Below, one piece after another: positions 2,659 to 36,753 of a stretch of 39,817 nucleotides of DNA. The notes beneath the pieces were generated by a model. It had not been told where the DNA came from, made no database searches, and saw only the letters and a list, made by a program, of their open reading frames with translations. The first letter of the stretch is position 1. Each line of letters begins with the position of its first letter. Made by a program: the position numbers and the translations under genes. The DNA lies in sequence record MT808983.1. One strand, 5' to 3'. The stretch is from Escherichia phage TM1.

Positions 2659-5340
2659 ATGAGCGTCATCTCTATTGACAAACACGACTTCTCTGATGTG
2701 TCGAACGCCATTGAGCCGTTTAACCTGCTGGCTGACCACTACGGGCAAGACCTTGCAGTCAAGCAGCTTCAGCTTGAGCATGAGGCATACACTGAAGGCG
2801 AGCGACGTTTCATCAAGAACCTTGAGCGCCAGACCGAGCGCGGTGAGATGGCAGACAATCAGGTCGCCAAGCCTTTGATGCAGACTCTGGTCCCTAAGAT
2901 TGCGCAAGCCGTCAAGGAGTGGCATGAAGGCCCAGACGGGAAGCTGTCAACCTCTCGTCCTAGCGTAGCGTTCACCATGTTGAGCACTGAAGATAAGGCC
3001 GTCAAGGACCGCTCTCTGCGCATCTCCTGTGAGTCTGCTGCGGTTATCATACTGAAGGTCATCCTCTCCAAGCTGGTAAAGCCTGAAGGGATACCGATTA
3101 CACCTATGGCCTCCGCGATAGGTCGCACACTTGAAGATGAGATCCGCTTCGGTCGAATCAGAGACAAGGAGCAGGAGCACTTCAAGAAGGCGATAGCTGA
3201 TAACCTGAACAAGCGAGCTGGGGCATCCTATAAGAAAGCCTACATGCAAGCGGTTGAGACCTCCATGCTGGAGCAAGGTCAACTGGAAGATGCGTGGGGA
3301 ACTTGGAGTCCGACAGAGGCGGTACACGTTGGCATCAAGATGCTTGAGATTGTCATACAGTCTACACAACTGGTCGATATTAAGCGTTATGGTGCTGGCA
3401 ATGCAGCGGCTGATGTTGAGATGGTCCACCTGTCAGACTTCTGGGTCAAGAAGATGGCACAACGTGGGTTCAGCCTTGCGGGTATCGCACCAGTCTATCA
3501 GCCTTGCGTAGTTCCACCTAAGCCGTGGACGGGTGTCGTAGGCGGTGGGTACTGGGCCAAAGGTCGCAGACCGTTACCATTGATTCGCTTAGGGTCTAAG
3601 TCTGCGGTAGCACGTTACGAAGACGTGTACATGCCGGAAGTCTATGACGCTGTGAACATCATCCAGAATACACCTTGGAAAGTTAACAAGAAGGTTCTGG
3701 ACGTGGTGAACATGGTCGAGAAGCTGAACAACACGCCTATTGACGACATCCCTCAGATGGAGCCACTAAAGCCTGAGGACTATGCGGGTGAGACCGATGA
3801 AGAACTGAAGGCATGGAAGAAAGCTGCTGCTGGTATCTATCGACGCGAGAAGGCCAGACAGTCGCGCAGATTGTCACTGAGCTTTATCGTCAACCAAGCG
3901 AACAAGTTCTCTCAGTTCAAGGCCATCTGGTTTCCATACAACATGGATTGGCGAGGTCGTGTCTACGCTGTCCCGATGTTCAACCCTCAGGGTAACGACA
4001 TGCAGAAGGGTCTCCTGACTCTGGCAGTCGGCAAGCCTATTGGTGCTGACGGTTTCAAATGGCTGAAGGTACACGGTGCAAACTGCGCGGGTGTTGATAA
4101 AGTCACCTTCGAGGAGCGAATCAAGTGGGTGGAAGACAATCACGACAACATTATGGCTGCTGCTAAGGCACCGATGGATAGTATTGAGTGGTGGGGCAAG
4201 TTAGACTCTCCGTTCTGCTTCCTTGCGTTCTGCTTCGAGTATGCTGGCGTAATGCACCACGGCCTGTCTTACTCCTGCTCGCTGCCGATAGCGTTCGATG
4301 GGTCCTGCTCTGGTATTCAGCACTTCAGCGCGATGCTTCGTGACCACATCGGTGGACATGCAGTAAACCTAACTCCATCCGGCAAGGTTCAAGACATCTA
4401 CCGCATCGTGTCTGACCGCATCGCGGAGGAACTCAAAGTCCTGCTTGTTAACGGTACGGATAACGAGATGGTGACTCACGAGGACAAGAAAACTGGTGAG
4501 ATTACCGAACGTCTCAAGCTGGGGACACGAGAGCTGGCCCGTCAGTGGCTGACCTACGGTATGTCACGTAAGGTCACTAAGCGTTCGGTCATGACTCTGG
4601 CCTACGGGTCGAAAGAGTATGGCTTCGCAGACCAAGTATACGAGGACATCGTGATGCCAGCGATTGACTCAGGGTCTGGCGCTATGTTCACTGAACCAAG
4701 CCAAGCGTCTCGCTTCATGGCTAAGATGATTTGGGAAGCTGTGAGTGTGACCGTGGTTGCTGCGGTTGACGCGATGAAGTGGCTTCAAGGTGCTGCCAAG
4801 CTGCTGGCTGCTGAGGTGAAGGACAAGAAGACTGGAGAAATCCTGAAGCCTTGCCTTCCGGTACACTGGGTAACACCTGATGGTTTCCCGGTCTGGCAGG
4901 AATACCGCAAGAAGGATACAACCCGTCTGAACCTGATGTTCTTAGGGTCATTCAACCTTCAGCCTACAGTCAACAAAGGCACGAAGAAAGAGCTGGACAA
5001 GCACAAGCAGGAGTCAGGCATTAGCCCGAACTTCGTCCACTCACAAGATGGCAGCCACCTGCGGAAGACTGTAGTCCACACTCATCGCAAGTATGGCGTG
5101 ATGTCATTCGCAGTGATTCACGATAGCTTCGGGACCATCCCGGCTGACGCTGAGTATCTGTTCCGTGGTGTCCGTGAGACGATGGTAGAGACATACCGCG
5201 ACAACGATGTGCTGCTTGACTTCTACGAGCAGTTTGAATACCAGCTTCACGAGAGCCAGCGCGACAAGCTGCCTGAGCTTCCGAAGAAAGGTAAACTAAA
5301 TATCGAAGACATCTTGTCTTCAGACTTTGCATTCGCTTAA
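2659..5340 (+). CDS. gp1: Single-subunit DNA-directed RNA polymerase (T7 gp1 homolog, 893 aa)
   Basis: Collinear similarity to recalled T7 RNAP along the whole length (e.g. PYNMDWRGRVYAVPMFNPQGNDM, DGSCSGIQHFSAMLRD, HDSFGTIPADA, C-terminal SDFAFA). Confidence 0.97.
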   Translation: MSVISIDKHDFSDVSNAIEPFNLLADHYGQDLAVKQLQLEHEAYTEGERRFIKNLERQTERGEMADNQVAKPLMQTLVPKIAQAVKEWHEGPDGKLSTSRPSVAFTMLSTEDKAVKDRSLRISCESAAVIILKVILSKLVKPEGIPITPMASAIGRTLEDEIRFGRIRDKEQEHFKKAIADNLNKRAGASYKKAYMQAVETSMLEQGQLEDAWGTWSPTEAVHVGIKMLEIVIQSTQLVDIKRYGAGNAAADVEMVHLSDFWVKKMAQRGFSLAGIAPVYQPCVVPPKPWTGVVGGGYWAKGRRPLPLIRLGSKSAVARYEDVYMPEVYDAVNIIQNTPWKVNKKVLDVVNMVEKLNNTPIDDIPQMEPLKPEDYAGETDEELKAWKKAAAGIYRREKARQSRRLSLSFIVNQANKFSQFKAIWFPYNMDWRGRVYAVPMFNPQGNDMQKGLLTLAVGKPIGADGFKWLKVHGANCAGVDKVTFEERIKWVEDNHDNIMAAAKAPMDSIEWWGKLDSPFCFLAFCFEYAGVMHHGLSYSCSLPIAFDGSCSGIQHFSAMLRDHIGGHAVNLTPSGKVQDIYRIVSDRIAEELKVLLVNGTDNEMVTHEDKKTGEITERLKLGTRELARQWLTYGMSRKVTKRSVMTLAYGSKEYGFADQVYEDIVMPAIDSGSGAMFTEPSQASRFMAKMIWEAVSVTVVAAVDAMKWLQGAAKLLAAEVKDKKTGEILKPCLPVHWVTPDGFPVWQEYRKKDTTRLNLMFLGSFNLQPTVNKGTKKELDKHKQESGISPNFVHSQDGSHLRKTVVHTHRKYGVMSFAVIHDSFGTIPADAEYLFRGVRETMVETYRDNDVLLDFYEQFEYQLHESQRDKLPELPKKGKLNIEDILSSDFAFA

Positions 5341-5633: not shown

Positions 5634-6113
5634 ATGTTCGGTAAGTCAAAACTTAAGGCACAAATCAAAGAGTTGAGCATGAAGGTGGCATACTTGGAGC
5701 GAGTCGTAGAGGTCCGGGACAAGGACAACGAGCGGCTGAAGGTTAAACTTGCTGAATCAGAGCGTAAGCGCCTAACGCCACCAGCTGCTGTAACTGTCAA
5801 GCGTATGGTAGGCATCAAGTTCAAGGCTCTATTCAACGGTATGTACCAACCGGCTGAGTTCAAGACTGGGCCGGGTAACTGTGGGAAGAACGTTAAGCAC
5901 TTCACCATCTCGAAGACTGAACGCACACTGACCATCCACCAGCACCACATAGACGGGTCTCAGAAAGACTTTGAGTACCGACTGAGCGACATCGACGGTA
6001 GAATCCAGTATGACTATGAGCTGGTTAAGGTATACGGTGAGGAGGCTGAACAGGAACGTATAGTCCAAGCCTTCCGCAACAGACACGATTCGTACCCTAA
6101 ACTATCACTATAG
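5634..6113 (+). CDS. Hypothetical protein (159 aa) with coiled-coil-like N-terminus, accessory gene
   Basis: ATG with SD GAAGAGG; its stop codon TAG lies inside the following phage promoter; no recognised motif. Confidence 0.6.
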   Translation: MFGKSKLKAQIKELSMKVAYLERVVEVRDKDNERLKVKLAESERKRLTPPAAVTVKRMVGIKFKALFNGMYQPAEFKTGPGNCGKNVKHFTISKTERTLTIHQHHIDGSQKDFEYRLSDIDGRIQYDYELVKVYGEEAEQERIVQAFRNRHDSYPKLSL

Positions 6114-6119
6114 GATTAG
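6096..6119 (+). promoter_or_regulatory. Phage-RNAP promoter (taaACTATCACTATAGGatt), phi1.1 position
   Basis: Family consensus; predicted +1 G at 6113; overlaps the 3' end of the upstream ORF. Confidence 0.8.
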
Positions 6120-6160
6120 ACTCAAGGTCATGACTCAAAGTCGTGGCCTTCATGATTAAC
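6118..6160 (+). ncRNA. Conserved leader hairpin, candidate RNase III processing site (R1.1 position)
   Basis: agactcaaggtcatgactcaaagtcgtggccttcatgattaa; one of three copies of a conserved AGACTCAAGGTCAT...GGCCTTTATGATTA element. Confidence 0.5.
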
Positions 6161-6195
6161 CCTAACCTAACGTAAACTACTGGAGATTTAACAAC

Positions 6196-6375
6196 ATGTA
6201 TCAGAACACTATCAACTTCGAGCGCATCCGTGAACGTCAACAGACTGAAGATTATATTCCGAAGGGCCGCAAGCTGAACAAGACCAAGCGTGGCGGTGGT
6301 GTCAAGGGTGCTTTCCGTAACGCTGAAGGCAAAGACTCTCTGGTCAACCAAGAGAAATACTTCGTAGGAGCATAA
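6196..6375 (+). CDS. gp1.1: gp1.1-like small basic protein (59 aa)
   Basis: Contains GRKLNKTKRGGG, matching the GRKLNKTKR motif recalled from T7 gp1.1; position after RNAP and the phi1.1 promoter. Confidence 0.7.
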   Translation: MYQNTINFERIRERQQTEDYIPKGRKLNKTKRGGGVKGAFRNAEGKDSLVNQEKYFVGA

Positions 6376-6378
6376 GCC

Positions 6379-6630
6379 ATGAGTAAACGTTGGTTATTCG
6401 ACGCATCACCGAGCCAGTGGTCATCGTTAGGCCGGACCCACAGAGAGATGAGCGAGGCAGGACTTGAGGTCAGAATGGATGACCTGCCGTGCTCCGGAAA
6501 GACTCTGGTCCAAATCATTGAAGCAGACGATGGGAGGATTCTGGTCACGCGCAAATTTAACGAACACGAAATCTTTAGCTGTGAGCAATGGTGCTTGCAG
6601 CAACTGAATGCTTACAGGAGCTGGAAATAA
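6379..6630 (+). CDS. gp1.2: gp1.2-like protein (83 aa; the T7 homolog is a dGTPase inhibitor)
   Basis: Position between gp1.1 and ligase, similar length and C-terminal WK as recalled for T7 gp1.2; internal similarity is weak. Confidence 0.55.
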   Translation: MSKRWLFDASPSQWSSLGRTHREMSEAGLEVRMDDLPCSGKTLVQIIEADDGRILVTRKFNEHEIFSCEQWCLQQLNAYRSWK

Positions 6631-7670
6631 TGACAACTATCAAGACTAACCCTCACCGCGCTGTAGACTACTCTGAGTCTGGCGTTAAGAAAGCGCTCGA
6701 AGCTGCCGGGTCACTGGAAGCTGAAGTGAAGTATGACGGTGTGCGGTTGAACCTTCCGGTGCTGCGAGAGGGTGAGACTTATTGGTTAAGCCGTGAGTCG
6801 AAACCTCTGCCTGCCTTGGAGTGGATGAACTCTGAGCTAGGTAATGCGTGGACCCAAGCTGACTGGCGATGGTTCCTGCGGCAAGCTGGATACGAAGGTG
6901 TGGGCCTGATGATCGATGGCGAGGTCATGATCAAAGGTGTGGACTTCAACACCTCCTCAGGTCTCATCCGAACGAAGTGGCTCAAGCCTAACAATGAGGA
7001 GGTCGCTGAATGCTATCCGGGCCGTGGCAAGAAGGTCCCGTTCTTGGTCTCCCGGTCACGACTTCAGGTTGTGGTATATGGCGTTGTCGATATGACAACC
7101 ATAGCAGACCCGAAAGCCGAAGGTCCTATCCATAGCGTCACACGCCTGAAGGCCGAAGCCATCGTCCCTCTCCTCCAGAAATACTTCCCGGAAATCGACT
7201 GGGTATTATCTGAGAGTCATACAGTGTATGACCTTGAGTCGCTCAACTCCCTGTACGAAGAGAAGCGTCTGGAAGGACACGAGGGTCTGGTAGTCAAGGA
7301 CCCACTTGGTAAATACAAGCGTGGCAAGAAGTCAGGCATGTGGAAAATGAAGCCTGAGGAGACAATCGACGGGACAGTGTGTGGCCTCGTGTGGGGGACT
7401 CCGGGTAAGGCTAACGAAGGTAAGGTGATTGGCTTTGAGGTGCTGCTTGAGGATGGCATGGTGGTTAATGCTTGTGGTCTGACTGAAGAACAGAAGGATG
7501 AGTTTACGGAAGCCTGTAACACTGATACATATATTCTCGGTGGAATCAATCCATACGAAGGCTGGCAGTGTGAAGTCCTTTTCATGGAGCGGTTCCCTGA
7601 TGGCTCACTCCGTCACCCTAGCTTCAAGTGCTGGCGAGGGACGGAAGACAACCCGACCGTTAAGAGTTAA
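6630..7670 (+). CDS. gp1.3: ATP-dependent DNA ligase (T7 gp1.3 homolog)
   Basis: MTTIKTNPHRAV...EVKYDGVR (KxDG adenylation motif) ...GHEGLVVKDP...KRGKKSGMWKMKPE...SLRHPSF, collinear with T7 ligase; start taken at ATG 6630 (T7-like MxxIKTNP) rather than the upstream alternative start in the ORF track. Confidence 0.92.
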   Translation: MTTIKTNPHRAVDYSESGVKKALEAAGSLEAEVKYDGVRLNLPVLREGETYWLSRESKPLPALEWMNSELGNAWTQADWRWFLRQAGYEGVGLMIDGEVMIKGVDFNTSSGLIRTKWLKPNNEEVAECYPGRGKKVPFLVSRSRLQVVVYGVVDMTTIADPKAEGPIHSVTRLKAEAIVPLLQKYFPEIDWVLSESHTVYDLESLNSLYEEKRLEGHEGLVVKDPLGKYKRGKKSGMWKMKPEETIDGTVCGLVWGTPGKANEGKVIGFEVLLEDGMVVNACGLTEEQKDEFTEACNTDTYILGGINPYEGWQCEVLFMERFPDGSLRHPSFKCWRGTEDNPTVKS

Positions 7671-7678
7671 CTAAACGT

Positions 7679-7720
7679 CAACCCAGTGGTCTTCGGACTG
7701 CTGGGTTTCTTTGCTTTATG
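7679..7720 (+). terminator. Rho-independent terminator, analog of T7 early terminator TE
   Basis: GC-rich hairpin (aacccagtggtcttcggactgctgggtt) followed by a T-rich tract tctttgcttt directly after ligase, where T7 has TE. Confidence 0.7.
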
Positions 7721-7753
7721 CTAGCAAGCTATCGTCTGGTCAACCAGCCTGAC

Positions 7754-7777
7754 CCTAAGCTATCACTATAGGACAAC
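7754..7777 (+). promoter_or_regulatory. Phage-RNAP promoter (taagCTATCACTATAGGaca)
   Basis: Family consensus with one upstream substitution; predicted +1 G at 7771. Confidence 0.7.
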
Positions 7778-7803
7778 CATAACTTCGACCTAAGGAGGCC
7801 GAC

Positions 7804-8064
7804 ATGTTTAAGAACTTAATGTTCAACCGTTATACCAGTACCTTCCACCTGTCCCACAACCCGTTCGCTTGCATTAAGCGCAACGAGAAGCTGGGATACT
7901 TCGGGAAGGCCGTTAAGCTGTCACCTACAGTCTTCGCTCTGATTACTCCGGGCAAAGCTGAAGAGGCTCGCCAGAAGCGTGAGACCAACGTACCTGTGGT
8001 CTACACTAAGTGGCCCCGCGTTCGTCTGTTCGTTGAGCTCGTGAAGGAGGTGGTAAATGGTTAA
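7804..8064 (+). CDS. Class II hypothetical protein (86 aa)
   Basis: Strong SD (AAGGAGG) before ATG 7804; first gene after the TE-like terminator. Confidence 0.6.
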   Translation: MFKNLMFNRYTSTFHLSHNPFACIKRNEKLGYFGKAVKLSPTVFALITPGKAEEARQKRETNVPVVYTKWPRVRLFVELVKEVVNG

Positions 8065-8392
8065 GCACAAGGAGTGGTGCCGCTGGGTCCTTAGGTTCGG
8101 TTCGTGCGACTGCGGCGCTGTTACCATCATCCCCGCCCCGAGCAGTAAAGATGACGGGGTACGCAAGCCATCCCACTATCAGGTCTTTGATGGCGTGGAA
8201 TCCATTGAGATTATCGCCCGGTCCATGACTGTCAGTGAGTTCCGTGGTTTCTGCATGGGTAACGTCCTGAAGTATCGACTCCGAGCTGGTAAGAAGTCAG
8301 AGCTGGCGACTATGGAGAAGGACCTGAACAAAGCAGCCTTCTATCAGGAGCTGTTCGACCTGCATAAAGGTAAGTGCTATGCTGCCGAGTGA
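8057..8392 (+). CDS. Hypothetical protein (111 aa); tentatively related to the C-terminal region of T7 gp1.7 nucleotide kinase (DUF3310-like)
   Basis: SD GGAGG before the ATG; motif NVLKYRLRAGKK...DLNKAAFY recalled as typical of the DUF3310/gp1.7 family. The assignment is from memory and unverified. Confidence 0.55.
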   Translation: MVKHKEWCRWVLRFGSCDCGAVTIIPAPSSKDDGVRKPSHYQVFDGVESIEIIARSMTVSEFRGFCMGNVLKYRLRAGKKSELATMEKDLNKAAFYQELFDLHKGKCYAAE

Positions 8393-8470
8393 GTGGTGCC
8401 TGGAGATGTACGAGAAGACTCTCAACCCGGACTACATTACGTTATACAACCAATGGAAGGAGCGTGGTTT

Positions 8471-8629
8471 ATGACTGAGGTTGAGAAGAAATACATCGTG
8501 GAGCTTGAGGGTCGCGTTCAGTCCTTCGAGGTTCCGGTGTACGCAAAGTCTCTTGAAGAGGCTGCCCTGAAGTCCCAAGAGTATGAGGACGCTGGGTTTG
8601 TGGTCGGACGGATTCGTCCTGAGACCTAA
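8471..8629 (+). CDS. gp2: gp2-like inhibitor of host RNA polymerase (52 aa)
   Basis: [33 protein letters not shown] parallels T7 Gp2 ([34 protein letters not shown]); start placed at ATG 8471 with SD AGGAGCG rather than the upstream alternative start. Confidence 0.75.
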
Positions 8630-8648
8630 ACTATCACTGTAGGACAGA
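8625..8648 (+). promoter_or_regulatory. Phage-RNAP promoter variant (taaACTATCACTgTAGGaca)
   Basis: Family consensus with A to G at -3; precedes the SSB gene. Confidence 0.6.
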
Positions 8649-8686
8649 CGTCCAGTTCGTAACTTTAAAATAGGAGATTTACACCG

Positions 8687-9385
8687 ATGGCTAAAGAGCA
8701 ACTGAAGACTTTCACCACTCCGGTAGCTGGTATCGTTGAGCCTTACGCATGGCTGAACAAAGCAGACACCAAGTTTAACGAGCGTGGTGAGCATAAGGTT
8801 AACCTGACATTCGACCTGAGCAACCCGAAGGTCCGTAAGATGATTGATGTCTTACAGAAGATTCACGACGATGCGTATGCGAAAGCACTCGCAGACCACG
8901 AGAAGAACCCACCTCAGGTTCAGCGTGGCAAGAAGCCTATTGAACCACGAGAAGGCGACATGCCGTGGATTGAGAATGGTGACGGTACTGTTACCCTGAA
9001 GTTCAAATGCTTTGCGTCTTACCTTAAAGACGGCAAGTCCGAGCCTATCGTATTACGGTTCTACGGCACTGATGCTAAACTCATCCGTGACGTCCCGAAT
9101 ATTGGCGCTGGGTCTAAGCTGAAGGTCAAGTTTAAAGTCCTGCCGTTCAAGTGGAACGCTGCGACTGGTGCAAGCGTTAAGCTCCAGCTTGAGTCCTGCC
9201 TTCTGGTAGAGCTGAAGGAGTGGAAAGGTGATGGTGCTGGTGGTGATGGTGGCTGGGGTGATGATGAAGACCTCGGTACTGGCTACAAAGCGTCAACCGA
9301 TGGTGACTTCGGGTCTGATGACTTCGGTGACGATGGCTCCGATGGCGCTGACGACTCTAACTCTGGTGGCGATTACGACTTCTAA
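8687..9385 (+). CDS. gp2.5: Single-stranded DNA-binding protein (T7 gp2.5 homolog, 232 aa)
   Basis: MAKEQ...GDMPWIENGDGTVTLKFKC...GSKLKVKFKVLPFKWNAATGASVKLQLESCLLVEL, with an acidic C-terminal tail ending DYDF, as in T7 gp2.5. Confidence 0.92.
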   Translation: MAKEQLKTFTTPVAGIVEPYAWLNKADTKFNERGEHKVNLTFDLSNPKVRKMIDVLQKIHDDAYAKALADHEKNPPQVQRGKKPIEPREGDMPWIENGDGTVTLKFKCFASYLKDGKSEPIVLRFYGTDAKLIRDVPNIGAGSKLKVKFKVLPFKWNAATGASVKLQLESCLLVELKEWKGDGAGGDGGWGDDEDLGTGYKASTDGDFGSDDFGDDGSDGADDSNSGGDYDF

Positions 9386-9831
9386 TGAAACTTAAAGAGA
9401 AACTGGAGGTTTACTCTGAGGTTTCTCCTACTGGGTGCTGGGAGTGGCAACTCTCCCGGTTCCCTGCTGGATATGGTCGAATATCAATAGGACGTCAGAA
9501 ACAGGACTACGCTCACCGAGTTTCATACAGGGAGTACAAAGGTCCGATACCTGATGGATTGGTTGTTAGACATAAATGTGATAACCCCTGCTGCTGTAAC
9601 CCTGAGCACCTTGAATTAGGTACGCAGAAGGACAACATGAGGGACTGCATGGAGAGAGGACGAAAGTCCAACCCTCCCGTATTCAAAGGAGAAGCTAATC
9701 ATAAGACTAAGCTGACCAAGGAAAACGTAGAGTTCATCTTAGAGTCGATGCTGCCAGCTACAGAACTAGCCAAGATGTTTGGAGTCACACCAGCAGCTAT
9801 AAACTGGAGGAGACAACATGGCTGGACGTAG
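9385..9831 (+). CDS. HNH homing endonuclease (148 aa)
   Basis: H-N-H core HRVSYREY...VVRHKCDNPCCCNPEHLELGTQKDN; ATG overlaps the SSB stop (TAATG). Confidence 0.85.
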   Translation: MKLKEKLEVYSEVSPTGCWEWQLSRFPAGYGRISIGRQKQDYAHRVSYREYKGPIPDGLVVRHKCDNPCCCNPEHLELGTQKDNMRDCMERGRKSNPPVFKGEANHKTKLTKENVEFILESMLPATELAKMFGVTPAAINWRRQHGWT

Positions 9832-10270
9832 CATAAGCAGAGGACATCAAGTAGGGGCCTACCGCTCAGGACTTGAAGCAAAGAACCAAGAGTGGCTTGA
9901 GAAGAACGGCGTGAAGGCTGAATACGAGGCTTATAAAATAGGCTACGTAGTACCGTCCAGCGACCATTTCTACACGCCAGACTTTGTGTTGCCTAACGGT
10001 ATCATCGTGGAGACCAAAGGTATCTTCGATAGTGATGACCGTAAGAAGCACCTTCTGGTACGAGAACAGCACCCAGAGTTAGACATTCGGTTCGTGTTCT
10101 CAAGTTCCCGCTCCAAGTTATACAAAGGGTCTCCGACCACGTATGGCGCATGGTGCGAAAAGAACGGCTATAAGTATGCCGATAAGTTCATCCCGGTTGA
10201 GTGGCTTCGAGAGGCGACTGTACGTCTGCCTTCGGGCATACTCATCCCCAAGAAGAAAGGAGTTAAGTAA
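9818..10270 (+). CDS. gp3: Endonuclease I, Holliday-junction resolvase (T7 gp3 homolog)
   Basis: AYRSGLEAKNQEWLEKNG...YTPDFVLPNGIIVETKG...DDRKKHLLVREQHPELDIRFVFSSSRSKLYKGSPTTYG, collinear with T7 gp3. Confidence 0.92.
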   Translation: MAGRSISRGHQVGAYRSGLEAKNQEWLEKNGVKAEYEAYKIGYVVPSSDHFYTPDFVLPNGIIVETKGIFDSDDRKKHLLVREQHPELDIRFVFSSSRSKLYKGSPTTYGAWCEKNGYKYADKFIPVEWLREATVRLPSGILIPKKKGVK

Positions 10271-10725
10271 TGACTACCTGTAAAGACCTTGAAGTTGGAA
10301 CACGTTACAGATTCTCAAAGAACACCCTGCTGAATAACCCCGGATTCACTGATGCTGTTTTCGAAAAGCGAGAAGACCATAGCGTACTTGTGGAGAAGGG
10401 GTGGCATCCTGAGGATTACATCGGTGAGATTACAAGCTGGAATGGTCACGATACCTACAGTGTAGAAGTTGTTGACCAGCCTCAGGTCCTGCCAGCTTCG
10501 AGCGTACCACCTGTGACTGTGAAGCGTGAAGTCCTGACCATCGACAAGATTGGTGTAGGCCAGACGTTCATCGTCCACGGAAAGCCTGAAGAAGTTTACG
10601 TGAAGATTAGCAACTCACACGTCTTCAACCATAAGCGTCTCCAGATGCACACCACGGACGCACAACGCTTCACCCAGCACCTGAATCTGGTGGTCGTAGA
10701 ATTGGTGGTGTACAATGGTAAGTAA
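10270..10725 (+). CDS. Hypothetical protein (151 aa) between endonuclease I and lysozyme
   Basis: SD AAGGAG; start and stop overlap the neighbours; no counterpart at this position in T7. Confidence 0.6.
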   Translation: MTTCKDLEVGTRYRFSKNTLLNNPGFTDAVFEKREDHSVLVEKGWHPEDYIGEITSWNGHDTYSVEVVDQPQVLPASSVPPVTVKREVLTIDKIGVGQTFIVHGKPEEVYVKISNSHVFNHKRLQMHTTDAQRFTQHLNLVVVELVVYNGK

Positions 10726-11173
10726 GGTACAGTTCAACCCACGGTCCCGGACTGACGCTATCTTCGTTCACTGTTCGGCTACCAAGCCAGATATGGACAT
10801 CGGGGTAGAGACCATCCGTATGTGGCACAAGCAGCAAGGATGGCTGGACGTAGGCTACCACTTTATCATCAAGCGCGATGGTACTGTGGAAGAGGGTCGC
10901 CCGGTCAATGTCGTAGGGTCACATGTTAAGGACTGGAACTCAAAGTCCGTAGGCGTCTGCCTTGTAGGTGGAATCAACGCTAAGGGTCAGTTTGAAGCTA
11001 ACTTCACTCCAGCCCAGATGAACTCCCTTCGCAACAAGCTGGCTGACCTGAAGGCCTTGTATCCTCAGGCAGAAATCAAAGCACACCATGACGTAGCACC
11101 TAAGGCGTGTCCAAGTTTCGACTTGCAACGCTGGTTGACTACCAACGAACTGATCACTTCCGACAACGGTTAA
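10715..11173 (+). CDS. gp3.5: N-acetylmuramoyl-L-alanine amidase / T7 lysozyme homolog (gp3.5)
   Basis: VQFNPRSRTDAIFVHCSATKP...WLDVGYHFIIKRDGTVEEGR...AHHDVAPKACPSFDL, near-collinear with T7 lysozyme. Confidence 0.93.
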   Translation: MVSKVQFNPRSRTDAIFVHCSATKPDMDIGVETIRMWHKQQGWLDVGYHFIIKRDGTVEEGRPVNVVGSHVKDWNSKSVGVCLVGGINAKGQFEANFTPAQMNSLRNKLADLKALYPQAEIKAHHDVAPKACPSFDLQRWLTTNELITSDNG

Positions 11174-11197
11174 TAAATTCTAAAGGAGAACAACTCA

Positions 11198-11413
11198 ATG
11201 ATTAAACTTATCGAATTTCTTGGTCGTCTGGTGGTGCGTGGTTATCGTCGTGCTGCGGTACTGGAACGAAAGGTAGAAAAGAAGAATGCTGACGGTGCGA
11301 CTGATGCTGCTGCTCTGGCTGACAAGCTGACCATCGCGTCACTGGAAGCTGGCATGAAGGCACGTCAAGCTGACACCAAAGCTGACCAGTTGGCTCAGTT
11401 CTTCAAAGCCTAA
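11198..11413 (+). CDS. Small alanine-rich protein (71 aa), unknown function
   Basis: Strong SD AAAGGAGAA; its stop codon TAA lies inside the next promoter. Confidence 0.55.
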   Translation: MIKLIEFLGRLVVRGYRRAAVLERKVEKKNADGATDAAALADKLTIASLEAGMKARQADTKADQLAQFFKA

Positions 11414-11431
11414 ACTATCACCTTAGGGATG
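11408..11431 (+). promoter_or_regulatory. Phage-RNAP promoter variant (taaACTATCACcTtAGGGat)
   Basis: Two substitutions in the -4/-3 region; upstream of the tRNA-like element and the primase-helicase gene; probably weaker. Confidence 0.45.
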
Positions 11432-11476
11432 GGACCATGAGTCCTTTCCCTTTGTTCGCATTTGTGATTAAGAAAT

Positions 11477-26088: not shown

Positions 26089-26111
26089 CTTATTGAATGG
26101 CCTATAGATTT

Positions 26112-26135
26112 ACCTTAACTATCACTATAGGGACT
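26112..26135 (+). promoter_or_regulatory. Phage-RNAP promoter (ttaACTATCACTATAGGGac), phi13 position
   Basis: Family consensus; predicted +1 G at 26129. Confidence 0.8.
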
Positions 26136-26174
26136 ATAGGCCCTTTAAGTTATAATACTTTAATAGGAGACTTT

Positions 26175-26657
26175 ATGTATATTCGTAAAGCTACGGAACC
26201 AGATGTCCACTACTTTCTCTGGCATCTTTCGGCAGATGATGTTAATGAGTGCAAAGCAAACTATGGGTCAACCGTGGGTCTCTCTGAAAGACTGCTTAAG
26301 CACCTATCTCCGTCATCTGTGGTTTTAACGAACGGTGTAGGCGAAGTGTTTGCCTATGGTGGCAGCCAAGGGGATAACGTATGGTTTTTGACTTCAGGTC
26401 TGGTCAACAAGCTGAGACCTAAAGAGAAGCGAGAGTTCATAAAGCGTATCTCTGAGTACAGGGACTTAATGTTAGACCAATACGGGACCATCTGGAACTA
26501 CGTGTGGTCAGGCAATAAGTCTCACATTAAATTCTTGAAGTTGCTTGGCGCTAAATTCCATGATGATTGGACTATCAGTCCGGTAACTGGTGAGCGTTTT
26601 CAATTATTTACTATCTCTAAGGAGGACGTATGTGTGAACCAGTATCCATCGGTCTAG
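26175..26657 (+). CDS. gp13-like internal virion/assembly protein (160 aa)
   Basis: ATG 26175 with SD AGGAG downstream of the phi13-like promoter (the longer track ORF from 26097 would span the promoter); position between gp12 and gp14. Confidence 0.6.
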   Translation: MYIRKATEPDVHYFLWHLSADDVNECKANYGSTVGLSERLLKHLSPSSVVLTNGVGEVFAYGGSQGDNVWFLTSGLVNKLRPKEKREFIKRISEYRDLMLDQYGTIWNYVWSGNKSHIKFLKLLGAKFHDDWTISPVTGERFQLFTISKEDVCVNQYPSV

Positions 26658-29515: not shown

Positions 29516-32500
29516 ATGGCGACTCGTGGTATTCGCAATAACAATCCGGGTAACATCCGGGTAAGTAAGGACCAATGGGAAGGAATGACTGGAGATGATG
29601 GCGCATTCGTCACCTTCGATAGTCCAGAGTCTGGCGTCCGAGCTTTAGGTAAAAACCTGCTGTCCTACGGTCGCCAAGGTTATGATTCCATCGAGAAGAT
29701 TATCAACAGATGGGCACCTCCTAACGAGAACGACACTCAGGCTTATATTAACTCAGTGGTGGCTGCGACTGGTATTCCAGCTACCCAGAGTCTCGACCTC
29801 TCGAACCCGGACACCCTGTCTTCTCTGGCACAAGCTATCAGCTTCCATGAGACAGGCTCCCGGTACGACCCTGAAGTCTATCAGAAGGGAGTCGCACGAG
29901 CACTCAACGGCATTAGCCCAAAGACTCCACCAGTAAGCGCTAACGTATTTGACTCACTCACGGAAGGACTCAAGGCTAAACCTAAAGTAGCTCTGGGCGA
30001 GAATCTTCCGACCGCTGCTGGTCTAAACATTGAGGGTCAAGCACCTGAAGCTCCCAACGAATCGTTCGGTGAGATGTTCTATAAGGCTACTGGCGAGACC
30101 ATGCAGGAACGAGAGGACCGCTCTACGTGGTTCGGTTTCGGTGCGGCTACAGAAGCTGAAGTGAAGAACTCTATGGTCGGCGTGGCTATCCGAGCTGGCC
30201 AGACTGAGGATTCACTGGATGTCATTGGCGATGTGTTCAACCCAACCAGATGGAACAACCATAAGTGGTCTCGTGAGGAGCTGGACCAGATTCGTAACGC
30301 TGGGGTTTTGCCTCAGTATTACGGAGTCATTACTGGTGGTTCTCCTCAGAATCTGACAGAGCTGATCAACTTGGCGCTGGAGAACCAGAAGTTAGACGCT
30401 GAGAAGGCCAAGGCTGGTACTGGCGCTCAGTTAGCCGCTGGTGTGATTGGAGCTGGAGTTGACCCTCTGACTTACGTTCCTATTGCTGGACAGGTAGGTA
30501 AAGGTGGTAAGCTGGTAAACAAGATGTTCACCGTGGCTGCGCAATCTGGAGCGTTGGCTGGTGTGTCTGAGATGTCCCGTACCTCAGTGGCTGGTGGCGA
30601 TGCTCATGTGGCTGAAGCTATCCTTGGTGGTGCTCTCTTCGGTGGTGGTATGACTGCTATTGCTGATGGACTAGGCAGAGCCTTAGGCCGAAACACTAAT
30701 GAGTTTGCTGGTCCAGCCACACGTCTGGAAGCCCGTGAGACTGCACGTAATGTTGATGGTCAGGACCTGTCTCGTCTACCTATTCAGGAAGGTGAGCAGA
30801 CCTTTAGTCACCAAGGCGTTAAGTTCGCTGACGTTCCGAACGAGCCTGGTAGTGTACGACTTGAAGATGGTTCAATCCTGATTGGTGAGAACCCTCTGAA
30901 CCCTAAGACACGTAAAGTCTTTGACGAAGTGATTGAGCCTGAACGTGCCGCTGCTGGTGTGAACCTTGGTGGGCTGACTGAGATTGGCCTGAAGCTGCTT
31001 CGGTCCGAGAACCCTGAGATTCGTGGAGTCGCTGCTGACTTAGTGCGTTCACCAACTGGTATGCAGTCAGGGGCCACAGGTAAAATAGGGACCACTGCGT
31101 CAGACGTATTCGAGAGACTTCGTGCTGTGGACCATCGGTTCTACAACGACATCGACGATGCAGTTAGAGAGGCACTCAAGGACCCATACTTCCAAACAGC
31201 ATTCTGGCGAGACTCTGGCGCATTCCGTCAGGACATCTATCAGCGTGTGTCTATGGCTATCGAAGACGGTAGTGGGAACCTGAAGGCTGAACTGACTCCG
31301 GGAGAACTGAAAGTCTATGACCTGCTGAAGAACCAGTTTGACGCCAAGCGTGAGATGATGGAGAACCCATCTATGTTCGGGCGTCCAGACGCTCAGTCTA
31401 TCTTTCCGGGTAGCCGCTTCAAGGGAACCTACGTCCCGCATGTGTATAGTAACCAGATGAAGGAGCTGTACATCAAGGAGCTTGGGAGTCCAGAGGCGTT
31501 GCAGGAGGCAATCAAGAAGTCATGGCTTACCAGCTATGCGTCTCGACCTGAAGTAAAGAAACGTGTGGACGAGGCACTATTAGAGGCGGACCCTACGTTG
31601 ACTCCAGAGGGACTTGCGGCTGCGGTCGATAAGTACGCCAACGATAAGGCTTACGGTATCTCCCATACAGAGCAGTTCGAGCGTTCATCCGTAATGGAAG
31701 AGAACATCAACGGTCTGGTAGGTCTGGAGAACAACAGCTTCCTTGAGGCGCGCAACCTGTTCGATAGCGATATGTCAATCGTCCTGCCTAACGGTCAGAC
31801 CTTCAGTGTCAATAACCTACGTGAGTGGGATATGGACAAGATTGTCCCGGCCTACAACCGTCGAGTTAATGGTGATATTGCTATCATGGCTGGTACAGGA
31901 AAAACCACGAAGGACATGAAGGACTTGGTTGAGACCATGATGAACAAGGCTGGGGATGACGGTAAGTTGAAAGGTGAGGTATCTACCTTACGTGACACCT
32001 TGAAGATTCTCACTGGTCGTGCTCGACGTGATGGTGCTGATGATGCAGCACTCAATACCGTGCTACGCACAATGACAGACCTATCGTTCTTCGCTAAGAA
32101 TGCCTACATGGGTGTTCAGAACTTAACGGAGATTGGTGGTATGCTGGCCCGTGGTAACGTCCGTGCAATGCTGCATGGGGTCCCGATTTTCCGTGACCTA
32201 GCCTTCCGTAACAAGAAGGTAGGGGCCTCAGAGATTAAGGACCTGCACAATGTTATATTCGGTAAGGAACTGGATGACTCAATCCGTCCGTCTAAACAGG
32301 ATGTCATTGACCGTCTGCGGTCTTACAGTGACCTCGGTCGTGGTACGGCTACAGCTCTGGGGACTGCCAAGTATTACACTGGTGAACTTGCAGTACGCTC
32401 TCCGCTCACTAAAGTCCTCAACGGTACGACCAACTACCTGTTAGATGCTGGACGTCAAGGATTCCTGTCTGACATCGTGGAACATAGTCTGACTGGTAGT

Positions 32501-33403
32501 AAGCGTCGGTTCGATGACCGCTGGCTTAAGACCGCTGGTATCTCCGAAGAGCAGTGGAAGGGCATTAAGTCATTAATCCGTGAGTCAGTGACTCGTGGTC
32601 CAGACGGGAAGTATACCATCAAGGATAAGAAGGCGTTCAGTCAGGACCCAAGGGCTATGGACCTGTGGCGTATGGGTGACACCATCGCTGACGAAACGTT
32701 ACTCCGTCCTCATAAGCTGTCCAACATGGACGCCAAGGCTTATAGTCCCCTCGCTAAGACTGTCCTTCAGTTTAAGAACTTCGTCATCAAGTCCATCAAC
32801 GGGCGAACCATGCGAACCTTCTACAACGCCACGAAGAACAACCGAGCGATGGACGCTGCACTGTCTACTGTGATGTCTATGGGTCTGGCTGGTATCTACT
32901 ACATGGCTCAGGCGCACGTCAAGGCTTACGCTATGCAGGACGGTCGAGACAGAGATTACCTCAAGCAAGCTCTGGACCCGACGATGATTGGCTATGCGGC
33001 TCTGTCCCGTAGCTCACATCTGGGTGGCCCACTTGGGGTCGCTAACATTCTGGGCGGCATCGCTGGGTATGAGGACACTAAGATGCTCCGCTCGTCTATC
33101 CTCCCTCGTTCACCTACAGAGAAGCCTGAACGTGCCATCTCGTATGGTGCGGCTACAAGTGACCCTGTGATGAATGTCGTCGGTAACTTCTTGGAGCAGG
33201 TTCCAGCTTTCGGCTATGCTGCTAACGTTGGTGCTTCGGCTTACAACTTGGCTGGCTACCTCAAGGCTGATACTCGTGTCAACGAGCGAGACTACATGAC
33301 CGGGATGTATAACACGTTCCGTGAACTGGTCCCGAACGACCCGATTACCCAGAAGTTGCTGCTTGGAACGTTTGAGGAGCATGGTATCCACATCAAGGAC
33401 TAA
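29516..33403 (+). CDS. gp16: Internal virion (ejection) protein D (T7 gp16 homolog, 1295 aa)
   Basis: Middle and C-terminal regions collinear with T7 gp16 (FGFGAATEAEVKNSMVGVAIRAG, KGTYVPHVY, AYGISHTEQF, NNSFLEARNLFDSD, TNYLLDAGRQG, AMDLWRMGD...LRPHK); the N-terminal about 120 aa diverge. Confidence 0.92.
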   Translation: MATRGIRNNNPGNIRVSKDQWEGMTGDDGAFVTFDSPESGVRALGKNLLSYGRQGYDSIEKIINRWAPPNENDTQAYINSVVAATGIPATQSLDLSNPDTLSSLAQAISFHETGSRYDPEVYQKGVARALNGISPKTPPVSANVFDSLTEGLKAKPKVALGENLPTAAGLNIEGQAPEAPNESFGEMFYKATGETMQEREDRSTWFGFGAATEAEVKNSMVGVAIRAGQTEDSLDVIGDVFNPTRWNNHKWSREELDQIRNAGVLPQYYGVITGGSPQNLTELINLALENQKLDAEKAKAGTGAQLAAGVIGAGVDPLTYVPIAGQVGKGGKLVNKMFTVAAQSGALAGVSEMSRTSVAGGDAHVAEAILGGALFGGGMTAIADGLGRALGRNTNEFAGPATRLEARETARNVDGQDLSRLPIQEGEQTFSHQGVKFADVPNEPGSVRLEDGSILIGENPLNPKTRKVFDEVIEPERAAAGVNLGGLTEIGLKLLRSENPEIRGVAADLVRSPTGMQSGATGKIGTTASDVFERLRAVDHRFYNDIDDAVREALKDPYFQTAFWRDSGAFRQDIYQRVSMAIEDGSGNLKAELTPGELKVYDLLKNQFDAKREMMENPSMFGRPDAQSIFPGSRFKGTYVPHVYSNQMKELYIKELGSPEALQEAIKKSWLTSYASRPEVKKRVDEALLEADPTLTPEGLAAAVDKYANDKAYGISHTEQFERSSVMEENINGLVGLENNSFLEARNLFDSDMSIVLPNGQTFSVNNLREWDMDKIVPAYNRRVNGDIAIMAGTGKTTKDMKDLVETMMNKAGDDGKLKGEVSTLRDTLKILTGRARRDGADDAALNTVLRTMTDLSFFAKNAYMGVQNLTEIGGMLARGNVRAMLHGVPIFRDLAFRNKKVGASEIKDLHNVIFGKELDDSIRPSKQDVIDRLRSYSDLGRGTATALGTAKYYTGELAVRSPLTKVLNGTTNYLLDAGRQGFLSDIVEHSLTGSKRRFDDRWLKTAGISEEQWKGIKSLIRESVTRGPDGKYTIKDKKAFSQDPRAMDLWRMGDTIADETLLRPHKLSNMDAKAYSPLAKTVLQFKNFVIKSINGRTMRTFYNATKNNRAMDAALSTVMSMGLAGIYYMAQAHVKAYAMQDGRDRDYLKQALDPTMIGYAALSRSSHLGGPLGVANILGGIAGYEDTKMLRSSILPRSPTEKPERAISYGAATSDPVMNVVGNFLEQVPAFGYAANVGASAYNLAGYLKADTRVNERDYMTGMYNTFRELVPNDPITQKLLLGTFEEHGIHIKD

Positions 33404-33422
33404 ACTATCACTATAGGAAACT
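33399..33422 (+). promoter_or_regulatory. Phage-RNAP promoter (taaACTATCACTATAGGaaa), phi17 position
   Basis: Family consensus; the gp16 stop codon TAA lies at -17 to -15. Confidence 0.8.
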
Positions 33423-33468
33423 GGAGGCGCTACCATAGGTCTCCCTTTAATTCATAACAGGAGGCATA

Positions 33469-35772
33469 ATGTCCACGATTACACAATTCCCTTCAGGAAA
33501 CACTCAGTACAGGATTGAGTTCGACTACCTAGCCAGAACGTTTGTTGTTGTTACGCTGGTGAATAGCTCTAACCCTACCCTGAACCGTGTACTGGAAGTT
33601 GGTCGAGATTACCGATTCCTTAATCCAACGATGATTGAGATGTTGGTTGACCAATCAGGTTTCGACATCGTTCGTATTCACCGTCAGACTGGAACTGACT
33701 TAGTGGTAGACTTCAGGAATGGCTCAGTGTTGACAGCTAGTGACCTGACCAATGCAGAGCTTCAGGCTATCCATATTGCAGAAGAAGGTCGAGACCAAAC
33801 TGTTGACTTAGCGAAGGAATATGCCGATGCTGCTGGTAGCTCTGCTGGCAACGCTAAGGATAGCGAGGACGAAGCACGACGACTCGCTGCGAGTATCAAG
33901 GCAGCTGGTCTAATTGGCTATATTACCCGTCGCTCCTTCGAGAAAGGCTTCAACGTTACAACATGGAACGAGGTCCTGCTATGGGAAGAGGATGGTGGTT
34001 ATTACCGCTGGGATGGTACGCTACCTAAAGAAGTTCCTGCTGGTTCAACCCCTTCGACAACTGGTGGCGTTGGTCTGGGTGCATGGGTGAGTGTTGGTGA
34101 CGCCTCTTTGCGTTCAAATCTTATTAGTGACAATTCAACTAATGGAGATGCACTGATAACCGTCAAGCAGCCATTTGCTAATTCCACGCCAAGAACGCAG
34201 CATGATAAAAACTCGGACATCATAAATATCCGTGATTTTGGTGCTGTTGGTGACTGGGACCCAGTCACAGACACCGGAACTGACAGCACACAAGCACTTA
34301 TTAACGCGGTTAATGCCGCCGTTTCGTTAGGAGGGGCTGAAATTGTTGTCCCTGAGGGGGTGTTCTGTACTACAAAGCCGTGGTATATACCAAGCGGCAT
34401 CGTTGTCAGAGGTAGTGGGTATAATTCTGTTATTTACAATCATCAGGTTTCTGGTTCAGTTTTCCCGCAAACTAACTGCATTCACGTTGGATATAGCACC
34501 GAGTGGGGAAACAGCGGTGAGCCAATGCCGACGGCCCCTGATGCAAAAATGGCTGAAATTCTGGCAAATAATTTCAGTAACATTACAACAAGGAATTCTC
34601 GTGTAACTAATATCCGCGTAATGAATAAGGGGTTTGGTCTTGGTATTTGGTTCATGAATGCTATGGATTGCTCTTGCGACAATATATGGGCTACTAATAC
34701 TACCACACCAATTAACATAGCCAATGATAACCCCTCGGCAGAAATGGCGTGCAAAAATATATCCGTTGATAATATATTTCAAGATGACGGTACGTTAGGC
34801 GAATGGTACGACCTGGCTTTCTTAGGTTCAGCGCTGGACTGTTCTTTATCTCGTCTATACAATAACCCGAACACAAAAAGTAAATTGGCAGAAATGATTG
34901 CTGTCAACGGTGCTCGTCGTTGCAAACTGTCAAAACTATCCCTTTGCGGTAATGAGGACGGTGTGGACCTGCAAATCGCCACCGGGGTGCTTATTTCTGG
35001 TTCATCTACAGGGAACTCTGTAACTAACTCAACATTCTCTAAGATGTCCAATGGGGTGAGTATCACCGGCACTGGCGGCAACACAGTAAAAGATTGTCGA
35101 GGCGAAAACATTTACACGACAGTATATCTTAACTCACCGAAGAACAAGATTTCCGGATTATCTGGTATTGATGTTGTTAACGACATTAGAGGTAATGTAG
35201 ACGCAATCAAAAATGACATAAATAATTGTAATATAAATTCCGTTAATATTTTCGATGTAAACCCTCCAGCTATGTATAATAGATTCAGAGATAACTCAAA
35301 AGATGATTCTATTCTTTTTAATAACTACAATAGCTATGCTGGGCTTCGTGCGAGAAAGATAGCAATGTTCCCCGCCGACGCTGCCATGCTCGCGTCGGAT
35401 AGAGAAGCAACGACAAATAACCTTGCGCGCATAACCAGAAATTCTAACGGAATATTTTCGTTATATTACAAAATACCTAATAACGTTAAGCAATTAACTA
35501 ATGTTACAGTTTACGGATACGGCGCACAATCCGGTGAAGCTGTAGACATAAGCATTGTTGGCATTGACTCCGATAACAACATAAATGGATTCCCAACATT
35601 TCAGTCACTAGGCACAAAAACTACAACTTCCACCGCCGATTTTGCTTTTGTATTCGGACCAACTAACCCTTTTTATGCTGCGGGTAGTTATTATGTGAAA
35701 GTAACGGTGACAATAGGTAATACTGCGACACAAATAAGGAGTGTTATGCTTGAATGTCTGTGTGATGACTAA
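33469..35772 (+). CDS. gp17: Tail fibre / tailspike (gp17 homolog, 767 aa) with T7-like N-terminal adaptor and a predicted beta-helix depolymerase-like C-terminal domain
   Basis: N-terminus (FDYLARTFVVVTL...DLVVDFRNGSVLTASDL...IHIAEEGRD) parallels the T7 gp17 tail-attachment domain; from about residue 240, INIRDFGAVGDWD...TDDT...ALINAVNAA is a pectate-lyase-3/beta-helix-type start followed by N/S/T-rich repeats; the DNA turns AT-rich from about 34100. Confidence 0.9.
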   Translation: MSTITQFPSGNTQYRIEFDYLARTFVVVTLVNSSNPTLNRVLEVGRDYRFLNPTMIEMLVDQSGFDIVRIHRQTGTDLVVDFRNGSVLTASDLTNAELQAIHIAEEGRDQTVDLAKEYADAAGSSAGNAKDSEDEARRLAASIKAAGLIGYITRRSFEKGFNVTTWNEVLLWEEDGGYYRWDGTLPKEVPAGSTPSTTGGVGLGAWVSVGDASLRSNLISDNSTNGDALITVKQPFANSTPRTQHDKNSDIINIRDFGAVGDWDPVTDTGTDSTQALINAVNAAVSLGGAEIVVPEGVFCTTKPWYIPSGIVVRGSGYNSVIYNHQVSGSVFPQTNCIHVGYSTEWGNSGEPMPTAPDAKMAEILANNFSNITTRNSRVTNIRVMNKGFGLGIWFMNAMDCSCDNIWATNTTTPINIANDNPSAEMACKNISVDNIFQDDGTLGEWYDLAFLGSALDCSLSRLYNNPNTKSKLAEMIAVNGARRCKLSKLSLCGNEDGVDLQIATGVLISGSSTGNSVTNSTFSKMSNGVSITGTGGNTVKDCRGENIYTTVYLNSPKNKISGLSGIDVVNDIRGNVDAIKNDINNCNINSVNIFDVNPPAMYNRFRDNSKDDSILFNNYNSYAGLRARKIAMFPADAAMLASDREATTNNLARITRNSNGIFSLYYKIPNNVKQLTNVTVYGYGAQSGEAVDISIVGIDSDNNINGFPTFQSLGTKTTTSTADFAFVFGPTNPFYAAGSYYVKVTVTIGNTATQIRSVMLECLCDD

Positions 35773-35834
35773 AGCAGACTAACGTATGGTAACAACTTTG
35801 GGTCACGGACGACCCGCTTTAAACTGGAGGTTTT

Positions 35835-36029
35835 ATGATTGAGTTAGACTTCAAGAATGAGGTCCTTAAAGCCTCTCCTATCGTCGGGACCGCTGCGGCT
35901 GATGGTGCCAGTCGGTTCTTCTTCGGACTCACACTGAACGAATGGTTCTACGTTGCAGCTATCGCGTACACCGTTGTCCAGATTGGTGTGCTGGTCTACA
36001 AAACGATTAAAGGAGGCGGTAAAACATGA
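35835..36029 (+). CDS. gp17.5: Class II holin (T7 gp17.5 homolog, 64 aa)
   Basis: FFGLTLNEWFYVAAIAYTVVQIG matches T7 holin (FFGLSLNEWFYVAAIAYTVVQIG). Confidence 0.9.
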   Translation: MIELDFKNEVLKASPIVGTAAADGASRFFFGLTLNEWFYVAAIAYTVVQIGVLVYKTIKGGGKT

Positions 36030-36289
36030 CGCAGATGGACTTAGAGAAGTTCCTCTTGATGCTGGATACTGAACGTGCTCGACTCATGCTGCAAGACCTG
36101 CGGGATGACTCTAAGCGTTCACCTCAGCTCTACAACGCCATTGAGAAGCTACTGGCTCGTCACAACTTTGTGTTAAGCAAGGTGTCTGTGGACGAGAAGA
36201 CGCTCGCTGATATGGAGGCCCTGAACGCAGAGTACGATAAGGTGCTTTCAGAGACTGAGGATAATGACACCGGTTATGGTATTCAATAA
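36026..36289 (+). CDS. gp18: Terminase small subunit (T7 gp18 homolog, 87 aa)
   Basis: LMLDTERA...SKRSPQLYNAIEKLLARHNF parallels T7 gp18 (EMLDTAMA...RRSPQLYNAINKLLDRHKF). Confidence 0.85.
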   Translation: MTQMDLEKFLLMLDTERARLMLQDLRDDSKRSPQLYNAIEKLLARHNFVLSKVSVDEKTLADMEALNAEYDKVLSETEDNDTGYGIQ

Positions 36290-36290
36290 G

Positions 36291-36345
36291 TGTTAGACTC
36301 AAGGTCATTACTATATGTAGTGGCCTTTATGGTTAACACTAAGGA
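36291..36345 (+). ncRNA. Conserved leader hairpin, candidate RNase III site (R18.5 position)
   Basis: tgttagactcaaggtcattactatatgtagtggcctttatggttaacac; third copy of the conserved element. Confidence 0.5.
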
Positions 36346-36351
36346 GGTTAC

Positions 36352-36753
36352 ATGAAAGATTCATACATAAGTGGCGGTTACTGGAAGGTTACTCGTAATG
36401 GTAAGGTTCATGGAGTTCATAGATTACTATGGGAGGAAGCCTACGGTCCTATCCCAGATGGTTACGTCATAGACCACATTGATAGGAATCCTATGAATAA
36501 CGAACTGTCAAACCTTAGGTGCATACCTAAAGGCGCAAACAAGGCTAACACGGTATCCTCTAGGGAACTGCCTAAAGGCGTATACTCTAGGTTTGCTAAA
36601 CGTCAAGGTGTAACTGTGTACTATGGTGACATTAGGATGGGAGGTAAGAAAGAAACTCATGCGCCTACTGAGAATCTGAAGGAAGTCGTGGAATGGGCTA
36701 AGTCAACTCATAGCAGAATGCTAAAGGAGACATATGGTATTTCAAATGTTTAA
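36352..36753 (+). CDS. HNH homing endonuclease (133 aa) inserted between gene 18 and the spanin genes
   Basis: VHRLLWEEAYGPIPDGYVIDHIDRNPMNNELSNLRCIPKGAN (H-N-H/N motif); SD AAGGAGG; locally AT-rich. Confidence 0.85.
   Translation: MKDSYISGGYWKVTRNGKVHGVHRLLWEEAYGPIPDGYVIDHIDRNPMNNELSNLRCIPKGANKANTVSSRELPKGVYSRFAKRQGVTVYYGDIRMGGKKETHAPTENLKEVVEWAKSTHSRMLKETYGISNV

Follow-up and report, generated by a model that had tools for sequence, protein, structure and literature searches.

The best overall explanation of gene 17 in Escherichia phage TM1 is that it very probably encodes a single receptor-binding tailspike (gp17) with four modules and an exchanged, putatively polysaccharide-cleaving cassette. 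From the N terminus, the modules are a T7-type anchor, a Tail_spike_N domain, a right-handed parallel β-helix and a CBM-like β-sandwich (Table 1). The 39,817-nt stretch analyzed here (sequence record MT808983.1, hereafter the window) is a full-length T7-like genome of an E. coli podovirus of the genus Kayfunavirus (Autographiviridae, Studiervirinae). Over its first 25 kb, nucleotide identity to many Kayfunaviruses is ∼94%, and the phage collection contains no genome identical to it. Both the architecture and the mechanism of exchange were known before, as was a 95%-identical protein, EcoDS1 gp17. TM1 gp17 is a standard, uncharacterized modular Kayfunavirus tailspike of the type described by Pas et al. 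(2023), combining a conserved anchor, a variable receptor-binding domain (RBD), a joint motif and occurrence of the RBD in other genera, and it adds no new principle.

Gene order around the tailspike gene is T7-like, running from gene 16 through a phage promoter to gene 17, the holin and the terminase. The reading frame is exactly that given in the first-pass annotation of this DNA, and an AGGAGG ribosome-binding site lies upstream at 33460–33465. The product matches PHROG 14442 (“tail protein”) with an E value of 1.5e-198; the label “tail fibre” that it had first received should be replaced by tailspike. All 23 nt of the phi17 promoter agree with the phi17 promoter annotated in EcoDS1, and the sequence also matches the EcoDS1 phiOR promoter. 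A search after gene 17 for an intrinsic terminator or a downstream “motif three” gave no terminator-like site in 35773–35834. Several open reading frames of 50–132 aa lie within gene 17 on the minus strand or out of frame; we judge them spurious because backbone transcription uses a single strand and because it is the gp17 frame that is conserved.

Table 1. Features of the tailspike locus, in window coordinates
Feature	Position	Strand	Residues of gp17	Remarks
Gene 16, internal virion protein	29516–33403			precedes gene 17
phi17 phage RNA-polymerase promoter	33399–33421	+		drives gene 17; overlaps gene 16 end
Gene 17, tailspike (gp17)	33469–35772	+	767 aa	ATG start; from ORF list
T7-type N-terminal tail-attachment (anchor) domain	33469–33918	+	1–150	PF03906
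Tail_spike_N domain (TSP1/Gp66-type)	33931–34101	+	155–211	PF18668
Conserved DNA joint	34000–34115	+		TATTACCGCTGGGATGG…GCATGGGTGAGTGTTGGTGACGC; 3′ end of anchor, 5′ cassette border; blastn, alignment A4
Exchangeable AT-rich receptor-binding cassette	34111–35772	+	215–767	1.66 kb
Second conserved joint	34150–34215	+	228–249	GDALITVKQPFANSTPRTQHDKN; blastn, alignment A4
Right-handed parallel β-helix, putative polysaccharide-binding/cleaving domain	34216–35268	+	∼250–600	
C-terminal β-sandwich, CBM-like	35350–35769	+	628–767	ends in conserved ...LCDD
T7-type holin (17.5)	35835–36029			PF10746; 3′ of gene 17
Small terminase subunit	36026–36289			PF11123; after holin

The first ∼150 residues had been likened to the T7 tail-fibre attachment domain, and both profile and structure comparisons bear this out. 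PF03906 (Phage_T7_tail) matches residues 10–115 of gp17 with 58.7 bits (Pfam gathering cut-off 25.2), and T7 gp17 (PDB 7boz) aligns to residues 6–115 with an E value of 2.8e-16. The Kayfunavirus-type tail spike of PDB 9vvr (843 aa) is near-identical to gp17 over residues 1–215 and divergent beyond; its entry contains 18 chains, consistent with six trimers, and we found no functional data on it in the literature. Because of this near identity, we would expect the N-terminal domain to dock gp17 at the gp11/gp12 tail junction. By analogy with the biology of T7, P22, Sf6, HK620 and K1F, gp17 would be a homotrimer present in six copies per virion.

Between this adaptor and the β-helix sits a Tail_spike_N domain, absent from the first-pass annotation, which scores 72.2 bits against PF18668 (cut-off 25). 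This domain is common to siphovirus and Ackermannviridae tailspikes. The CBA120 tailspikes TSP3 and TSP4 align to residues 151–268 of gp17, and CBA120 TSP1 to residues 151–223. The AlphaFold2 model is unreliable over residues 1–249 (pLDDT <50, shallow alignment), and we claim nothing from it in that region.

Comparison with four other Kayfunaviruses by blastn gives the cassette sharp borders. At the 5′ side, homology to Bas105, PSK1 and ST0223 ceases at 34107–34115; at the 3′ side, backbone homology is back at 35764–35781, at the stop codon (35770–35772). The 5′ border falls at a conserved DNA joint that encodes ...YYRWDG...GAWVSVGDA and corresponds to the 3′ end of the Tail_spike_N domain. 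Skatevirus Bas77, with an unrelated RBD, has only 34000–34112 in common with the window, at 76% identity. Matched by its description, this joint is probably the cross-genus “motif one/two” of PMC10408124. In Kayfunaviruses, according to Pas et al. (2023), receptor-binding proteins have a modular build, conserved motifs mark the points at which RBDs are exchanged with Kaguna-, Kutter- and Lederbergviruses, and motif one/two was proposed as a recombination hotspot (PMC10408124). The cassette was probably acquired through homologous recombination at this joint. The second joint, with the peptide ...VKQPF...RTQHDKN, is the fusion point where the cassette joins a head-binding domain of the P22/Sf6 type: homology to an E. 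coli prophage tailspike (locus L002) begins at 34192, and homology to the Klebsiella Kayfunavirus SAKp10309 extends to 34217. Cassette limits placed this exactly (34108/34116 to the stop codon), along with the conserved joint, provide a recipe for host-range swaps in a Kayfunavirus chassis.

Across the whole of gene 17, the only phage record with a DNA match is EcoDS1, another Kayfunavirus (94.8%); ∼160 further records match nucleotides 1–640/692 of the gene only, with 92%–96% nucleotide identity over the anchor. The EcoDS1 protein (YP_002003781, annotated as “tail protein”) has equal length and is identical at 731 of 767 residues (95%) without gaps, the 36 substitutions lying mostly in residues 500–660. 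Promoter, position and domain order are as in the window, whereas the HNH insertion found downstream of gene 17 in the window is missing from EcoDS1. The literature yielded no study of the function or structure of EcoDS1 gp17. The two genomes diverge by ∼5.5% both inside and outside the cassette, and acquisition therefore predates their split.

The cassette family is small and has no solved structure. Relatives number 12 proteins among 5.8 billion. When 1.84 billion representative proteins were searched, only ∼26 clusters (50% identity) aligned over most of the module; the other ∼620 hits have only the cap region of the β-helix in common with it. One relative (P0002, 89% amino acid identity) carries a Tail_spike_N-type anchor only. 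Its gene follows that of the central tail protein in a 47-kb siphovirus contig (L004) that is ∼89%–90% identical to the Skatevirus-like phages HC6 and Bas77, and the cassette DNA is 85.7% identical there over window positions 33985–35782. Another (P0003, 82% amino acid identity) bears the P22-type head-binding domain PF09008 and belongs to the L002 prophage, an E. coli argW prophage that adjoins an integrase and tRNA-Arg(CCT), with flanking genes 98.8% identical to E. coli intS-yfdC-mlaA-fadL. Here, the cassette DNA is 82.2% identical over 34192–35768. E. coli assemblies in ERR11595356 and JGI 3300076468 carry this prophage copy, and the siphovirus comes from SRR13517659. More distant relatives (36%–49% amino acid identity) occur in two further phage backbones. 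Megablast did not find the cassette in 5,426 complete E. coli genomes, and the prophage version matched complete E. coli genomes via its head-binding domain only; a peptide-pattern scan of 185,579 species-representative genomes likewise returned no cassette relative, so that these searches pointed to no serogroup or receptor.

One cassette on three different anchors, together with the sharp homology borders, shows horizontal exchange directly and supports the horizontal acquisition of the receptor-binding module proposed from base composition at first pass. That virions of three unrelated types carry it is a further clean case of cross-family RBD exchange.

The body of the cassette adopts the right-handed parallel β-helix fold of the pectin-lyase-like superfamily. 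From 11 family members, AlphaFold2 gives a model of high confidence over residues 250–767, with pLDDT mostly 80–93. Fold scores for the β-helix do not separate lyases from hydrolases. At residues 251–289 lies the cap motif “INIRDFGAVGDWDPVTDTGTDSTQALINAVNAAVSLGG,” which the first-pass annotation had singled out; the motif is present, but the literal “TDDT” given for it is not. In alignment A1, the canonical cap DFGAxGDG..DDT..A spans residues 256–284 and is interrupted by a six-residue insertion that distant family members lack. Cap matches to the family profile come from GH55, the Sf6 tailspike, AlgE and PfbA (E values 1e-18 to 1e-13), and the cap region matches the Sf6 tailspike at 5e-15. 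Among solved structures (family profile against PDB sequences), similarity is confined to this cap, the N-terminal ∼100 residues of the module, and no catalytic residues can therefore be transferred.

A match to Pectate_lyase_3 had been expected for the β-helix. None was found on gp17 directly: PF12708, PF13229 and PF05048 give no match at E ≤ 1, and Pfam and NCBIfam searches with gp17 and with residues 211–767 return no significant β-helix or enzyme family. Weak matches to alpha-D-galacturonidase (E = 0.003) and to a YPYG domain (E = 0.004) were treated as noise. However, 6 of 11 homologs (33%–41% identity to gp17) match PF12708, and some match NosD or Beta_helix. The link to β-helix families is therefore one of transitive homology and fold, and in that form the expectation holds.

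The most conserved block of the family, residues 338–470, includes the invariant residues E345, W346, D358, N419, D420, Q438, W446, Y447 and D448, a polar and acidic pattern in the β-helix that persists down to 33% identity. The substrate groove is probably formed by this block, with two of its four carboxylates (E345, D358, D420 and D448) as likely candidates for a catalytic pair.

We propose that the β-helix attaches to a polysaccharide on the host surface and cleaves it, by which the virion would reach the outer membrane, with catalysis by two of these four carboxylates. The receptor-binding module would set host range and thus decide the strain range of TM1. On balance we lean toward O-antigen rather than capsule as the target, because the other carriers of the cassette are of the P22/Sf6 and Skatevirus types and because Sf6 has the closest tailspike by sequence. 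Studied phages of both these types are O-antigen-dependent (PMC11990801). For Kayfunaviruses, the targets described in this paper on the BASEL collection are the K1 capsule, O104 or O16 (PMC11990801).

The same observations bear on whether the module could instead act as a depolymerase, perhaps a lyase, of capsule (K-antigen), with TM1 capsule-dependent like K1F and the Klebsiella podoviruses. We consider this conceivable but doubtful: the tailspike nearest in sequence is an O-antigen endorhamnosidase, that of Sf6, and the cassette also occurs in a prophage of the P22/Sf6 type and in a Skatevirus-like siphovirus, groups whose characterized members depend on O-antigen. It is unlikely, though conceivable, that the cassette family has an undescribed specificity or cleavage chemistry directed against an uncommon E. 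coli O- or K-antigen. The features behind this suggestion are the small size of the family and its lack of a solved structure, the atypical six-residue cap insertion, the invariant C-terminal ...C-D-D and the absence from 5,426 complete E. coli genomes; if it were true, the cassette would represent a depolymerase family not described before, with uses in serotyping or host-range engineering. Finally, the β-helix might bind its glycan or modify it, for example by deacetylation or epimerization, without cleaving the chain. This we regard as very unlikely, given that the invariant polar and acidic block is the pattern expected of an active-site groove and that characterized podovirus β-helix tailspikes are nearly all depolymerases (PMC10408124, PMC11990801).

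Comparison with known systems places gp17 among the modular Kayfunavirus tailspikes. Those of K1F (an endosialidase), CLB_P1 (O104), Bas105 (O16) and PDB 9vvr have near-identical anchors over residues 1–∼214 and share with gp17 the joint motif and the cassette logic (PMC10408124, PMC11990801), but their receptor-binding cassettes are unrelated to that of the window beyond the cap. K1F combines an endosialidase β-propeller with a C-terminal chaperone, and gp17 has neither. A K1F-like endosialidase was rejected: no β-propeller or Peptidase_S74 chaperone was matched in Pfam, and DNA and protein similarity are lacking past the anchor. The tailspikes of Sf6, HK620, P22 and Det7, which are O-antigen endoglycosidases, are 10%–16% identical to gp17 over the helix body, and their catalytic residues cannot be aligned with gp17 by sequence. 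The C-terminal domain also differs, being a CBM-like sandwich in gp17 and of another kind in these four proteins. The T7 gp17 tail fibre has a homologous N-terminal attachment domain and an equal gene position. In T7, however, this domain leads into a coiled-coil shaft and a small tip domain, which binds rough LPS and is not an enzyme; TM1 gp17 has the Tail_spike_N domain, the β-helix and the β-sandwich in place of shaft and tip.

The base composition of the cassette sets it apart from the rest of the genome. The GC content of 34111–35772 is 41.8%, and no other 1662-nt window of the genome goes as low. The mean over non-overlapping windows of this size is 50.4% (sd 1.6), which gives the cassette a z score of −5.4, a drop far beyond chance. 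The first-pass annotation had seen AT-richness from ∼34100 to 35770 and had named a GC content uniform across the gene as one of two results that would speak against it; the sliding-window analysis instead yields this genome-wide minimum, although a finer profile starts the drop at ∼34370. By codon position, GC3 of the cassette is 0.38 versus a gene mean of 0.554 (sd 0.061), and GC1 is 0.436 versus ∼0.57 in other genes. Recoding the cassette protein with backbone codon usage gives 48.4% GC rather than the actual 41.8%. About two-thirds of the 9.9-point deficit (6.6 points) is therefore due to codon choice, and the other 3.3 points come from amino acid composition. The low GC thus reflects composition in part and foreign codon usage in part.

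The cassette lies 5–9 GC points under its flanks in all five backbones examined, distant relatives included, and low GC is also seen in four of the five other RBD types sampled from Kayfunaviruses (41.7%–45.4% versus ∼51%). AT-richness is therefore partly a property of such modules in general, not one peculiar to TM1, and it is not proof of recent transfer into this phage. That it arises from the Asn/Ile/Ser/Thr-rich composition of the β-helix alone, with no horizontal acquisition, would agree with the low GC1, the 3.3 points traced to amino acids and the deficit in every backbone, but this explanation is largely refuted by GC3, by the recoding result and by the sharp borders of one cassette on three different anchors, and we hold it to be extremely improbable.

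The module had also been described as rich in N/S/T repeats. At the DNA level, Tandem Repeats Finder detected 0 arrays in gene 17, and these “repeats” are the structural coils of the β-helix only. The enrichment itself is borne out: Asn, Ser and Thr together make up 29.1% of residues 215–767 versus 21.0% of residues 1–214, with Asn alone at 11.6% in the cassette.

Downstream of the shared joint motif, the conserved DNA that forms the 5′ border of the cassette, Bas105 from position 5143 onward has the same sequence as Bas77 from position 3869 onward (alignment A4). This common sequence corresponds to the O16-specific receptor-binding module of the two phages, which are unrelated, a Kayfunavirus and a Skatevirus respectively. 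Judged from the aligned sequences, the pair is a second instance of the cassette-swap pattern found for the window's own module.

The GC content of the module lies 5–9 points below that of the flanking genome in all five unrelated phage backbones (window 34111–35772, the E. coli prophage L002, the Skatevirus-like siphovirus contig L004, and L011 and L013). In L013, it remains below the flanks although GC3 has converged on the backbone. Together, these observations suggest an amino-acid-driven floor to the GC content of the module's fold.

L013 (region 6001–11436) is a metagenomic, podovirus-like contig with SU10-type adaptor genes, and encodes P0009, a distant relative of the window's module (36% amino acid identity). 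A second PF12708 beta-helix protein is encoded two genes downstream of P0009, suggesting a phage with dual tailspikes.

Elsewhere in the window, an insertion flanked by gene 18 (small terminase) and gene 18.5 (spanin) carries a GC-poor HNH_3 gene, which looks like a free-standing homing endonuclease. Besides the tailspike module, the only other clearly GC-poor gene of the structural region has the tail-tube gene on one side and the genes for the internal virion proteins on the other.

Insertion and GC-poor genes in the window
Feature	Position	Strand	Size	GC	GC3	Basis
Insertion	36343–36741		399 bp			Extra relative to EcoDS1 and PSK1
HNH_3 endonuclease ORF	36352–36753	+	133 aa	42.6%	0.39	PF13392, E 4e-18
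Structural-region gene	26097–26657	+	186 aa	42.7% (unusually low)	0.46
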